DNA from: an uncultured delta proteobacterium
Lineage (GTDB): Bacteria > Desulfobacterota > Binatia > Binatales > Binataceae
Reading direction: 5' to 3'
Length of the DNA stretch: 64,000 bases
Assembly (NCBI GenBank): GCA_963711565.1
Contig: CAVQEQ010000001.1
Span: 384,001-448,000 of the forward strand
Shown one piece after another: positions 33,575-62,930 of this stretch (position 1 is the stretch's first letter; each line of letters starts with the position of its first letter). The notes below the pieces were generated by a model. The model saw nothing but the letters and a program-made list of their open reading frames with translations. It did not search any database and was not told the origin of the DNA. The position numbers and the translations under genes were made by a program.

Positions 33575-33901
33575 GTGGCGCGCTGGGAGAGCCGAACCTT
33601 CTTCGTGTACATCATGGGCAGTAAGTTCGGTGTTCTCTATATTGGGGTCACGAACAATTTAGAACGGCGCGTGAAGGAGCATCGCGAAGGACTGATTCCA
33701 GGGTTTACGAAGAAGTATCGCGTGCGGAGGCTCTTATATTTCGAACAGTTCGAGAGAGCGGCAGAGGCAATCGCTCGTGAGAAACAAATCAAGGGATGGA
33801 AGCGGGCAAGGAAGCTCGATCTGATTCATACGATGAATCTTGAGATGGCAGATCTTGGCGCGCGCAGGAGCACGCGAGATTCTTCGCCGCGCTCAGAATG
33901 A
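33575..33901 (+). CDS. Small stand-alone GIY-YIG nuclease (UPF0213-like, 108 aa)
   Basis: FVYIM...LYIGVTNNLERRVKEH, FTKKY, AIAREKQIKGWKR; GGAGA RBS before GTG 33575; stop TGA lies inside a repeat. Confidence 0.92.
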   Translation: MARWESRTFFVYIMGSKFGVLYIGVTNNLERRVKEHREGLIPGFTKKYRVRRLLYFEQFERAAEAIAREKQIKGWKRARKLDLIHTMNLEMADLGARRSTRDSSPRSE

Positions 33902-33989
33902 CGGAAGTTATGATGTTCTGCGCACTTTCTTTTGTCCGTCTTTTTTTCATCCGTCATCCTGAGCGCAGTCTGCGCAGCGAAGGATCTCG
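33875..33989. repeat. Palindromic repeat family A, inverted pair at the 3' end of the GIY-YIG gene
   Basis: CGAGATTCTTCGCCGCGCTCAGAATGACGGA (33875-33905) and TCCGTCATCCTGAGCGCAGTCTGCGCAGCGAAGGATCTCG (33950-33989). Confidence 0.85.
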
Positions 33990-34022: not shown

Positions 34023-34589
34023 ATGAAGCCGCGCAAGTGGAAGACGCTCAGGAGCAACGTCGCGTACAGCACGCCGATCTTCGATTTGCATCGACGCCAC
34101 TCGACGCATCCGCGGCGCGGCGAGCGCGACTTCTTCATTCTCGAAGCGCCCAACTGGGTGAATATCATTCCGCTCGCGAAGAACGGCGATGTGGTGATGA
34201 TTCGTTTATGGCGTCACGGCATCTCCGACTTCACGCTCGAGGTGCCGGGCGGAATGGTCGATCCCGAGGATCCGTCGCCGATGCACGCGGCGCGCCGCGA
34301 GATGATCGAAGAGATCGGCTTCGATTCCGACGCGATCGTCGAACTCGGCAAGGTGCATCCGAATCCTGCAATCCAGGGCAACATCTGTTTTTCGTTCCTC
34401 GCCGAGAATGTGCGACACGTCGAAAGGGCGGTCTCGCCCGGCGACGAAGAGACCGAAGTCGTGCTAGTCCCGATGCGCGAAATCCGCGGCCTGATCGCGT
34501 CGGGGAAAATCATGCACGCGCTGACGATCGCCGCATTTTCGTTCCTGCACGTGTACAACCCGCCGCCGAAGCGTAAGCGCAAAAAGTAA
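34023..34589 (+). CDS. NUDIX hydrolase (ADP-ribose pyrophosphatase-like)
   Basis: Nudix box EVPGGMVDPED...AARREMIEEIG; HPNPA. Confidence 0.9.
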   Translation: MKPRKWKTLRSNVAYSTPIFDLHRRHSTHPRRGERDFFILEAPNWVNIIPLAKNGDVVMIRLWRHGISDFTLEVPGGMVDPEDPSPMHAARREMIEEIGFDSDAIVELGKVHPNPAIQGNICFSFLAENVRHVERAVSPGDEETEVVLVPMREIRGLIASGKIMHALTIAAFSFLHVYNPPPKRKRKK

Positions 34590-34845
34590 AAGATCCTTGC
34601 AAGAAAATTCGATGCGCGCGTTCAAAGAGTCGAGAGGGACGACTCGATGGACGCATTCAGCTCCAAGCTCAAGCGCTGGACCGGCTCATTTGGCGACCGC
34701 CGCCTGTTCCAGATCTAACGGGATGGAACCTCGAAGACGTAATCAAGAAGACCGGGCTGCCGCCCGACTCCCAGCCAAAGCCGCGATGGCAAGGCATCTG
34801 GGGCTCGTGGCGCGCTGGTCGCGACGGTACGCGCGAGGTTGTCTT

Positions 34846-34951
34846 GTTTTCAGTGGGGCGGGCCGCCGTGCCCGCCATCGACGCGCCGGGGCTCGGTGCG
34901 GGCCGCGACCTTGAGCAGAGGGCGGGCACGGCGGCCCGCCCCACTGAAAAC
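34846..34951. repeat. REP-doublet (REPIN-like) perfect inverted repeat
   Basis: 31-bp GTTTTCAGTGGGGCGGGCCGCCGTGCCCGCC at 34846-34876 and its exact reverse complement at 34921-34951. Confidence 0.85.
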
Positions 34952-35287: not shown

Positions 35288-35593
35288 ATGAGGCTCCGCC
35301 ACGCCGACGCGCTCGTGCTTGTGGGCTGGTATCTACTGATGCCGCCGTGGATCGGTCCCACATTGGACTTAAGGACGCCGCTATCAAAATGGGTGAATCA
35401 AGGCTCATTCGACTCGGACGAACAATGTGAAAATGCGAGGGCTGATCTCATAAACGGCTTCAAAGGCGATCTCGACACGGCGGAAGGCAAAGCACCAGAC
35501 TCCGAAGATGTGGCGATGTTGCAAATGGCCGACGAAGTGGAAGAGGAGTCAGAGTGCGTCGCGACTGACGATCCGCGTCTCAAACCGAAATAA
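35288..35593 (+). CDS. 101-aa membrane-anchored/secreted hypothetical protein
   Basis: Hydrophobic ALVLVGWYLLMPP, PLSKW, two Cys, C-terminal CVATDDPRLK. Confidence 0.7.
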   Translation: MRLRHADALVLVGWYLLMPPWIGPTLDLRTPLSKWVNQGSFDSDEQCENARADLINGFKGDLDTAEGKAPDSEDVAMLQMADEVEEESECVATDDPRLKPK

Positions 35594-39495: not shown

Positions 39496-39515
39496 TCCTC
39501 TGTCGCCCCATTTTT

Positions 39516-39695
39516 GTGTCATTCAGAGCCGCTGCGGCGAAGAATCCCGGACTCGCCGGTCCGAGGAGCGTTCGAGACTCGGACCTTGGCACAGCCTCTC
39601 CGAAACGTGTCCAAGCGCCGCCGAGGTCCGTGGATCGAATGAATCTCGGCATTCGCGCGTCCGAGATTCTTCGCCGCGGCGGCTCTGAATGACAC
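39516..39695. mobile_element. MITE/REPIN-like element bounded by family A repeats
   Basis: 36-bp terminal inverted repeats (39516-39551 and 39660-39695) with 2 mismatches; no coding capacity. Confidence 0.75.
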
Positions 39696-39726
39696 GGGAG
39701 ATGCGAAGCTGGATTGTCTCGATGGA

Positions 39727-40281
39727 TCAGGCCGCGGGTAGCGCGCGCAGCTTCTCCACGAAGCGTCGCATATGCGGGTCGGACCGCTCGAACGGAATCT
39801 CATCGAAGCTGAACCATCGCACGCTGTGAAACTCGCCGCGATCGAATTCAATCACCCGCGTGCTGTCGCCGCGGAGCAAATACCAGAGCGATACATCGGT
39901 ATGCGTACCATGGCCCGCGGTCAGCGTTGCCGTGATGAACAAGGGATCGGGACGCACGAAATCCGCCGCGAGGTTCAGCTCTTCCACTAGCTCTCTATCC
40001 ACGGTTGCACGCGGATGCTCATCGGGCTCGACGTGGCCGCCGCTCGGCAGCCACAATCCTGCGAGCTTGTGATCGACGAGCAAGAGCTTCCCGCGATCTT
40101 CATCGACGAGAGCGAAGTAACTCACCAGATGCTTGGGCGGGATGTCCGGCTTCTGAATCCGGAAGATAGGCGCACCCGAACGAATCCATTCGAGCGTCGA
40201 GGCGCGATGCGCCCGCTCGAGCTCGTCGAGCGGCTCAATTGCCTCAACTATTTCGGCGATTTTATCGCGCACGGAATGCAC
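39727..40281 (-). CDS. NUDIX hydrolase (start uncertain)
   Basis: HLVSYF, WLPSGGHVEPDEHPRATVDRELVEEL, HTDVSLWY, DPHMRRF. Confidence 0.85.
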   Translation of the reverse strand: MHSVRDKIAEIVEAIEPLDELERAHRASTLEWIRSGAPIFRIQKPDIPPKHLVSYFALVDEDRGKLLLVDHKLAGLWLPSGGHVEPDEHPRATVDRELVEELNLAADFVRPDPLFITATLTAGHGTHTDVSLWYLLRGDSTRVIEFDRGEFHSVRWFSFDEIPFERSDPHMRRFVEKLRALPAA

Positions 40282-51237: not shown

Positions 51238-51507
51238 TCCTCGCCCTGTTAGGGCGAGGATGAAGGTGAGGGTCGAAATACAGCGCGCGATGTTTTTCGC
51301 GCGCGATTCAGGATTCTTTCTCTTCTCTCTGAGTCTCGCTTCTCGTCCGCCCTACTCTGTCATCCCGAGCGAAGCCGAGGAACCCCAGATCCGGCCTCGC
51401 CCGCTCGTGGGGAGAGGCCGCCGCGCGTCCTCGTGCGGCGGGAGAGGGACGTTATTTTCTGGATGGATTCCAGCGGTTCGCGTTCGCATGCGTCGCTCGA
51501 AAATGAC
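51238..51507. repeat. Mosaic of palindromic repeats (family B at 51238-51272 and 51393-51448; family A at 51357-51386 with a degenerate partner ending near 51507)
   Basis: TCCTCGCCCT-gtt-AGGGCGAGGA..GGTGAGGG; CTGTCATCCCGAGCGAAGCCGAGGAACCCC; GGCCTCGCCC..GGGAGAGGCC..GGGAGAGGG; CGCTCGAAAATGAC. Confidence 0.72.
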
Positions 51508-55540: not shown

Positions 55541-56546
55541 GAAGACTGCGCGGTCGATCGAACGCGTGCTGGTAATCTTTCCCGGCGCGCTTGGCGATCT
55601 CTTGTGCCTGATGCCGGCGCTGGCGGTGATTGCGCAACGTCATCCGGGCGCGTCGATCGAGCTGATGGCGCGATTCGAGCTGGCGCGGCTCGCCGCTGGG
55701 AGGACCGTCGTCGCGCGCGCGCACTCGATCGATGCTCGCGAAGTGGGTGCGTTGTTCTCCGACGACCCTTCAGATGGCGCGCGCCGATTCTTCGCGGAGT
55801 TCGATCGTATCTACTCGTTCTTCGCGTCGGACGACGCGCGGTTTCGCGCGCGATTGGCGGCGGCGACCGATGCCGTCGTCTCGTTTCATCCGTTCCGTCC
55901 GGGCGGCGACGGCCACGTGTCGGCGGGGTACTTGAGGACGGTTGACGCGGACGCTTCGCAGGTGGTTACGCGGCTCGAACCGACCGCCGATGACCTTGCG
56001 GCGGCCTCGCGGGTGCTGGCGGAAGCGAAATGCGATGCGGCCGGGCTGGTCGTCATTTTTCCCGGCAGTGGAAGTCCCGCCAAGAATTGGCAGGCGCATA
56101 AATTCGCGGAGCTTGCGGCGATGCTGGCGAAAGGATCCGGGATTCTTCGCTCCGCAGACTCCGCTCTGAATGACAAAGAGGATGGTCAGAAGGACAAAGA
56201 ATATTCATGCGTGGTCGCGCTTGGGCCGGCTGAAGCGGCGATCGAACCTGTCTTTCGCGAGGCCAGCATCCCCGTCCTGAAGGATCTCGATTTGCCGACC
56301 GTCGCCGCCGTCGCGCGCCTGGCGTCGGCCTTCGTCGGCAATGATTCGGGCGTGGCGCATCTTGCAGCGGCGGTCGGCACGCCCGGCGTGGCGATCTTCG
56401 GGCCTACCGATCCCGCGCGATGGCGTCCGCTTGGCCCGGGCGGGGGCGCACAGATAACCATTCTCAGGCGCGATCTCATCGATTCTATCGAGCCGCGCGA
56501 GGTCGCCGGCGCTCTGTCGAAATTTGTGGAGCGGCGTCAAAGATAA
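55527..56546 (+). CDS. Glycosyltransferase family 9 (heptosyltransferase-like)
   Basis: GALGDLL, FPGSGSPAKNW, FVGNDSGVAHLAAAVGTP, FGPTDPARWRP. Confidence 0.9.
   Translation: MTLTEKTARSIERVLVIFPGALGDLLCLMPALAVIAQRHPGASIELMARFELARLAAGRTVVARAHSIDAREVGALFSDDPSDGARRFFAEFDRIYSFFASDDARFRARLAAATDAVVSFHPFRPGGDGHVSAGYLRTVDADASQVVTRLEPTADDLAAASRVLAEAKCDAAGLVVIFPGSGSPAKNWQAHKFAELAAMLAKGSGILRSADSALNDKEDGQKDKEYSCVVALGPAEAAIEPVFREASIPVLKDLDLPTVAAVARLASAFVGNDSGVAHLAAAVGTPGVAIFGPTDPARWRPLGPGGGAQITILRRDLIDSIEPREVAGALSKFVERRQR
56136..56175 (-). repeat. Family A repeat embedded in frame in the GT9 gene
   Basis: Reverse complement TGTCATTCAGAGCGGAGTCTGCGGAGCGAAGAATCCCGGA matches the copies at 33950 and 39516. 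Confidence 0.82.
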
Positions 56547-62851: not shown

Positions 62852-62930
62852 TTCCGGGCCGCAGCGGAAAAGCCAGGTTTCTAACTTTTTTGTGTCGCGC
62901 CCTTTTTGTGTCATCCTGATCACGCCTGCG

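Follow-up and report, generated by a model that had tools for sequence, protein, structure and literature searches.

Hairpins with a tandem G·A mismatch accompany a separate branch of the Ssn nucleases among the bacteria sampled, and one member of this branch lies, together with its hairpins, in the window (the whole 64,000-nucleotide stretch of an uncultured delta proteobacterium that was analysed). A system of nuclease plus hairpin is already published, including the parallel with RAYT/REP, in the account of the Ssn family and its NTS/SRM hairpins (Chenal et al., 2025, Nat Commun 16:2388, PMC11893778). What is new here is the G·A-mismatch hairpin class and its match to one enzyme branch. The class is set apart from the published consensus sequences by descriptions, and we found no account of it, or of its link to an enzyme branch, in the literature searched, most subscription journals lying outside that scope. 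It seems probable that, in a second major branch of the Ssn family, hairpins are recognised by way of a tandem G·A step that is not Watson-Crick paired.

The window protein and its branch of the Ssn family

The ssn gene (33575..33901, + strand) has a GTG start and a TGA stop at 33899-33901, with a CoA-binding gene on one side and a NUDIX gene on the other. Its product of 108 residues falls within the Ssn size range, a single GIY-YIG domain of <150 aa; PF01541 (E 1e-15) was its sole Pfam domain in a profile search, and NCBIfam profiles gave no match. Pairwise blastp against SsnA of Neisseria gonorrhoeae, the orthologue located via the published ssnA primer and used in place of the N. meningitidis protein, aligned 85/94 residues, of which 41/85 were identical (48%, E 2e-25). 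In the whole-genome search the E-value was 1.8e-18. Under the published homology threshold (E < 1e-10 across at least 75% of SsnA; PMC11893778) the window protein counts as an Ssn homologue. In the alignment the catalytic residues Y6, Y17 and E64 of SsnA correspond to Y12, Y22 and E69, all kept, as are R32 and H36, while the position of W74 is occupied by R79. Values of dN/dS against 10 orthologues ranged from 0.04 to 0.30 (10 pairs, one orthologue with indels being left out). The gene thus has intact catalytic residues and is under purifying selection. The predicted structure has a GIY-YIG fold (pLDDT 84.9), and among solved structures it comes closest to UPF0213 proteins and Slx1, which are 18-30% identical to the window protein; no Ssn-type chain was among the matches in this search. 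The initial annotation had spoken of a small Slx1-like enzyme, a description that does not hold when these identities are set against the 48% to SsnA: judged by sequence, the protein is a member of the Ssn family and not Slx1-like.

To follow the hairpins beyond the genus, we used an outside sample of 109 loci, comprising the best 80 of 593 metagenome loci and 29 loci from a phylum sample. Hairpins were of the G·A type at 40 loci and perfect-stemmed at 31, and 38 loci had no hairpin call. A hairpin was found near 62/89 loci with full flanks compared with 7/62 far-flank controls, so the enrichment beside GIY-YIG homologues that the initial annotation had proposed to look for is present. When the 109 loci were sorted by the residue at SsnA position 74, G·A hairpins adjoined 60/70 enzymes with K or R, 0/37 with W and 2/2 with another residue. 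Conversely, the residue is W in 31/31 perfect-stem enzymes and K/R in 46/48 G·A enzymes. The window protein, which belongs to the K/R branch, lacks the RNG loop and has a shorter first loop.

In a tree of 81 proteins, the label G·A or perfect-stem required 1 change, compared with at least 20 in 200 shuffles, and the split received an SH-aLRT of 97; this tree left out the 38 loci with no hairpin call, included one locus relabelled by eye, rested on an alignment of 91 columns, and left many forks unresolved. Adding an outgroup and the unlabelled rows did not alter the count of one label change (SH-aLRT 95). The split between enzymes and hairpins is thus a single evolutionary event, which points to two subfamilies and not to repeated co-evolution. 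Plasmids of Planktothrix agardhii and Spirosoma oryzicola carry K-type enzymes with G·A hairpins, and a Rhizobium plasmid carries a W-type enzyme with perfect-stem hairpins. In the published table S. oryzicola is cd10448-positive with an SRM enrichment of 0.6, that is, no enrichment (PMC11893778). The ssn gene of the P. agardhii plasmid (NZ_LR882964.1), of the G·A class and with stacked hairpins, sits inside a defence locus, flanked by an MmeI-type methyltransferase gene and by DISARM drmA. No Ssn loci were found in annotated phages, and 3 loci matched in viral contigs.

Anatomy and distribution of the G·A hairpins

The repeat consists of GTC, a 5-bp stem, a tandem G·A/A·G mismatch, an upper stem, a loop and a closing C. 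Around the invariant GA/GA step the letters of the stem change in compensating fashion (pair 3 is T-A in 65 cases, C-G in 60 and G-C in 10), and the first pair above the step, which was not used in selection, is Watson-Crick in 127/142. A pairing-blind scan that fixed only GTC, both GA steps and C gave 206 heads with at least 4/5 pairs in 51 kb near genes, as against 25 in 110 kb far away. In the commonest type, A (40 or 41 copies), the position below the GA step is occupied by an A·A mismatch. Folding with ViennaRNA DNA parameters gave weak energies of -3 to -7.5 kcal/mol, and for the copies at 33878 and 56174 the minimum-energy fold differs from the proposed stem. Pattern-based detection, used for the results given here, replaced a folding-energy detector that overlooked many copies. 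The published SRM string matched 0/56 copies in the genome, where it occurs 30 times in total compared with 31-47 in the null; outside the genome it matched 0/40 G·A loci and 22/31 perfect-stem loci. By its letters, the window repeat is a variant and not an SRM in the published sense.

It had been noticed earlier that the TGA of ssn lies inside a palindrome ending GAATGAC. This is indeed the case: a reverse-strand type B1 hairpin (33878..33902, −; GTC-ATTCT-GA-GC..GC-GA-AGAAT-C) provides the last codons and the stop, and it is found at the same position, the gene end, in 12/12 orthologues. The last codons of the window gene (33850-33902) differ from those of the orthologues and resemble the tail of the dispersed B1 repeat read in reverse; this 3' end may have arisen by gene conversion from a repeat copy. 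The inverted copy reported downstream also exists, at a distance of 50 nt and not 44, as a type B2 hairpin (33953..33986, +; GTC-ATCCT-GA-GC..GC-GA-AGGAT-C) with a T-rich 5' leader, the heads-inward partner of the B1 copy. The B2 pattern matched in 10/12 orthologues; one more has a variant, and in one the contig ends.

Copies assigned to the same family at 39516/39660 and 56136 proved to be real, with a difference in type. A 246-nt segment (39496..39741) between convergent RNA methyltransferase and NUDIX genes (Pfam) contains a heads-outward pair of type A hairpins, the left member at 39518-39546 (+) and the right at 39665-39693 (−), and a single type A hairpin with the two-arm pattern lies at 56141..56174 (−). 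These three (39518, 39693, 56174) are of the CAGAGC (A) type, whereas the type attached to the window ssn is CTGAGC (B). The A type flanks a second Ssn paralogue in the same genome (C1:78228-78584), and by hairpin type most window copies match this paralogue elsewhere in the genome. The AGTCTGCG loop is, as had been pointed out, common to the 33953 and 56174 hairpins, and the divergent copy placed near 51357 is a type C G·A hairpin at 51359..51385 (+; GTCATCCCGAGC..CGAGGAACC); no clade C nuclease was found in the source genome. The suspected stub at 62910 (62910..62919, +) has the head GTCATCCTGA but no partner arm, and is doubtful, a stub at best. A loose 12-mer search of the window with 2 mismatches returned 36 matches against 28 expected, which is chance level; only the two-arm hairpin pattern is informative for window copies. 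Elsewhere in the window, a small ORF (35288-35593) with no Pfam match has distant copies at several variable junctions in relatives, and 126 nt after the NUDIX gene (34586-34711), which look like a gene remnant, are replaced by 158 other letters in the near-identical strains X1 and X5.

Counting the repeat genome-wide, as the initial annotation had suggested, gave numbers far above the null: the strict two-arm pattern has 56 copies in the 4.84-Mb genome and 0 in each of 5 Markov-1 null genomes, and wider type patterns give 85 heads, distributed among types A (40), F (18), B2 (10), B1 (8), A2 (6) and C (3). With a rough in-house gene caller, 84/85 heads lie outside predicted genes. The type F double-hairpin repeat (18 copies, for example at C1:195504 and C1:1007919) has the same anatomy of GTC, five pairs and GA/GA, and no Ssn clade with type F repeats on both sides was found in the genus. 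Truncated heads are stacked upstream of full hairpins for 74/361 heads in the fetched loci and 7/84 in the source genome (chance about 6%), and their shared leader lengths do not fix a cut position.

The genome also contains a second, unrelated repeat with a GTAG-like head, present in 52 copies, an inverted pair of which lies at 34852-34945 of the window. Copies of this repeat stand on either side of a RAYT-like Y1 HUH gene (C1:341110-341711), and the two together probably represent a true RAYT/REPIN system in the same genome. The earlier statement that no transposase is present stands for the window, with Y1_Tnp genes located elsewhere; the genome as a whole has this RAYT-like HUH gene, associated with the other repeat.

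Nuclease clades, turnover and rival explanations

In the genus, Ssn matches occur in 33/47 genomes, in 1-4 copies each, many with stops. A tree of these proteins, which took in 61/65 fetched sequences with four short ones dropped, shows four supported clades, one of which holds both the D and E hairpin groups, and a few unplaced rows. Each genus group has its own hairpin type, so that hairpin type follows nuclease clade, the co-variation that had been proposed as a check. A hairpin lies within about 260 nt of the gene in 59/61 loci compared with 0.8% of random segments, the patterns for this count having been written after the flanks had been seen. Considering homology, enrichment and the clade match at sequence level, the window protein is very likely a cognate hairpin-recognising nuclease. 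To this extent the suggestion that the enzyme maintains or spreads the repeats as their cognate nuclease is supported in its cognate part; the spreading is considered below.

The window clade (12 genes) occupies the same neighbourhood in 12/12 cases, and an upstream hairpin is absent in 12/12. The CoA-binding/NUDIX junction is empty in at least 10 of 40 fetched loci, and the ssn-filled genome G005, in which a CGGCGGAGTTT repeat bounds the cassette, is sister to the empty G061; junctions at species level are too diverged for a target-duplication test. On an ffh tree of 41 genomes, presence of the clade requires 9 changes, as would be expected of an old resident that has been lost repeatedly. 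Other clades look mobile. Clade C has inverted heads-outward hairpins on both sides in 13/13 genes, at no fewer than 7 sites, and at one site, flanked by one and the same pair of neighbours, its cassette faces opposite ways from genome to genome (L076, L090, L097), consistent with inversion between its inverted hairpins. Clade A occupies at least 7 sites and clade D 6, and the source genome is without a cassette at 4 of the sites occupied in relatives. The second paralogue (cassette C1:78177-78714) has inverted type A hairpins on both sides and its stop inside a hairpin; downstream are tandem copies and a direct duplicate of the hairpin plus gene start. In relatives this junction is filled, empty or hairpin-only, and the single hairpin is consistent with what deletion between direct copies would leave.

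Such distributions could be explained if hairpin-ssn-hairpin cassettes were mobile elements in their own right, from which non-autonomous hairpin pairs derive, with Ssn moving them as RAYTs move REPINs. The number of sites, the two orientations and the decayed extra copies of ssn all favour this explanation, as does the existence of CGTC-tagged REP families described without a dedicated transposase (Di Nocera et al., 2013, PMC3733652). Raw repeat counts also rise with the matching clade (medians 21.5 vs 1, 11.5 vs 4 and 17 vs 6; p 0.0005, 0.009 and 0.04), with one control pairing of repeat and clade nominally significant as well. However, independent-pair tests on the host tree, which control for kinship and have low power, lent no support (median p 1, 0.63 and 1), 10/35 genomes without the window clade hold at least 10 type B copies, and the window ssn's own clade has not moved. 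Furthermore, GIY-YIG enzymes hydrolyse DNA and leave no covalent intermediate for rejoining. The search for empty sites called for by the initial annotation produced one precise empty allele. Near-identical strains from three studies, in runs that do carry ssn, are without the segment 39496-39741, whose spacer and flanks are unique in the genome; the joints are 39495>39742 in runs X1 and X5 and 39495>39745 in X7. This clean absence indicates recent turnover. The ends of the segment are 22 and 48 nt beyond the two GTC heads, a long way from where cutting is predicted, and no target duplication is present. At a second stretch with 4 copies, strain contigs break at the repeats and provide no usable empty site. 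We consider the mobile-cassette explanation doubtful. Spread of the repeats by the window ssn itself, as first supposed, is not supported: most copies in the genome belong by type to the other paralogue, relatives rich in repeats are often without the matching clade, and the precise empty allele ends away from the predicted cut sites. It is equally doubtful that a G·A-reading Ssn branch, with host repair, drives the spread of its own cassettes and of GTC-headed repeats as a transposase-free class of mobile element; if true, Ssn-driven spread would provide the missing mobiliser of the CGTC REPs.

A reading of the hairpins as RNA elements of the REP kind at gene ends, with Ssn genes gathering at junction hot spots without specific recognition, is very unlikely. 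The preference of heads for convergent gaps (26/84 vs 343/2573), their tendency to lie on the transcribed strand (30 to 16, p 0.054) and the several unrelated repeat types found at the methyltransferase/NUDIX junction in different genomes would agree with this, but the hairpin class tracks the enzyme clade (60/70 vs 0/37 loci), and other nuclease genes are not so accompanied: no family hairpin lies within 5 kb of the more distant GIY-YIG gene in the genome, none accompanies one of the HUH genes, and the nearest to the other is 3.3 kb off. Moreover, the T-run is on the 5' side of the stem and so misplaced for an intrinsic terminator, the hairpins have no match in Rfam, and RNA is not bound by SsnA (PMC11893778). 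Likewise very unlikely is a structure-specific repair nuclease of the Slx1/UPF0213 kind that trims any hairpin or cruciform. Although these proteins are the nearest solved structures, the closer identity is to SsnA, the gene is patchy even when any Ssn match is counted, and SsnA needs sequence, not shape alone (PMC11893778).

Proposed activity and relation to known systems

By analogy with SsnA, we prefer to read the window protein as a nuclease active on ssDNA, one that recognises the G·A hairpin on a single strand and cleaves immediately 5' of GTC, and we consider this quite likely. Ssn would bind the hairpin when DNA is single-stranded, either incoming or transiently unpaired, and would cut a few bases 5' of the GTC head on the one strand predicted to form the hairpin. 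A tandem G·A step is stable in DNA as sheared pairs; our literature search on sheared G·A chemistry returned no supporting paper. The step in these hairpins presumably forms such pairs, and the opposite strand (TC/TC) would for that reason fold poorly. K or R at position 79 and the shorter first loop may adapt the enzyme to the G·A stem. The window ssn itself would be a long-resident, partly eroded cassette whose upstream hairpin has been lost and which passes to descendants at the same site, with frequent deletion. At gene ends, hairpins would be gained, lost and replaced, probably by cut-provoked recombination and repair, and probably without a cut-and-paste step like that of a transposase. 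A ComEC gene is present in the genome, and competence is putative.

To our knowledge, no site-specific endonuclease of ssDNA has been described outside the Ssn family. Should G·A hairpins be what the K/R branch recognises, a large part of the family would have targets invisible to the published pattern; enzymes and targets of new specificity could then be listed in pairs at once, one residue would predict the class of target, and a protein that reads a non-canonical DNA pair would be at hand.

For Neisseria, binding of SsnA to the NTS hairpin is described as restricted to ssDNA, its cleavage as site-specific, confined to one strand and upstream of the hairpin, and its effect on transforming DNA that carries the hairpin as a lower rate of integration; the oligonucleotides used for the four assayed Ssn enzymes were all perfect-stemmed, and the discussion proposes an IS and REP/RAYT analogy without testing it (PMC11893778). 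The CDD family of the published Ssn nucleases is cd10448. The window system resembles Ssn/SRM in its small single-domain GIY-YIG protein with Y6, Y17 and E64 kept, and in its GTC-headed, oriented hairpin with a closing C, found beside the gene and dispersed, with inverted flanking in paralogues. It differs in the tandem G·A/A·G step that follows five pairs of the stem, and in an enzyme on a separate branch from SsnA, with K/R for W74 and no RNG loop. Hairpins on both gene sides occur in 42% of Ssn homologues and are not required (PMC11893778); the C1:78228 paralogue has them, whereas the window ssn has no upstream hairpin and has its stop codon inside the downstream one. With UPF0213 and Slx1 the protein shares the GIY-YIG fold, at the low identity given above.

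The likeness to RAYT/REP systems lies in a small nuclease gene flanked by cognate imperfect palindromes that are also dispersed as singlets and pairs. The enzyme of RAYTs (TnpA-REP, with GTAG REP/REPIN repeats) is an HUH tyrosine enzyme, whereas here it is a GIY-YIG hydrolase with no HUH (Y1) transposase domain, and the RAYT-like gene of this genome is associated with another repeat. With the CGTC REPs the G·A hairpins share the CGTC/TGTC head, A-T pairs at stem positions 1-2, a short tail, an intergenic location, dimers, a bias to convergent gaps and the lack of a flanking RAYT; as characterised in that source, CGTC REPs have stems of 8-9 bp and loops of 4-5 nt, with no G·A step in the description (PMC3733652). 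The G·A hairpins may overlap with the CGTC-2 or CGTC-3 family of that study. With five nuclease groups and five hairpin types in one genus, the question of what spreads CGTC repeats becomes directly testable.
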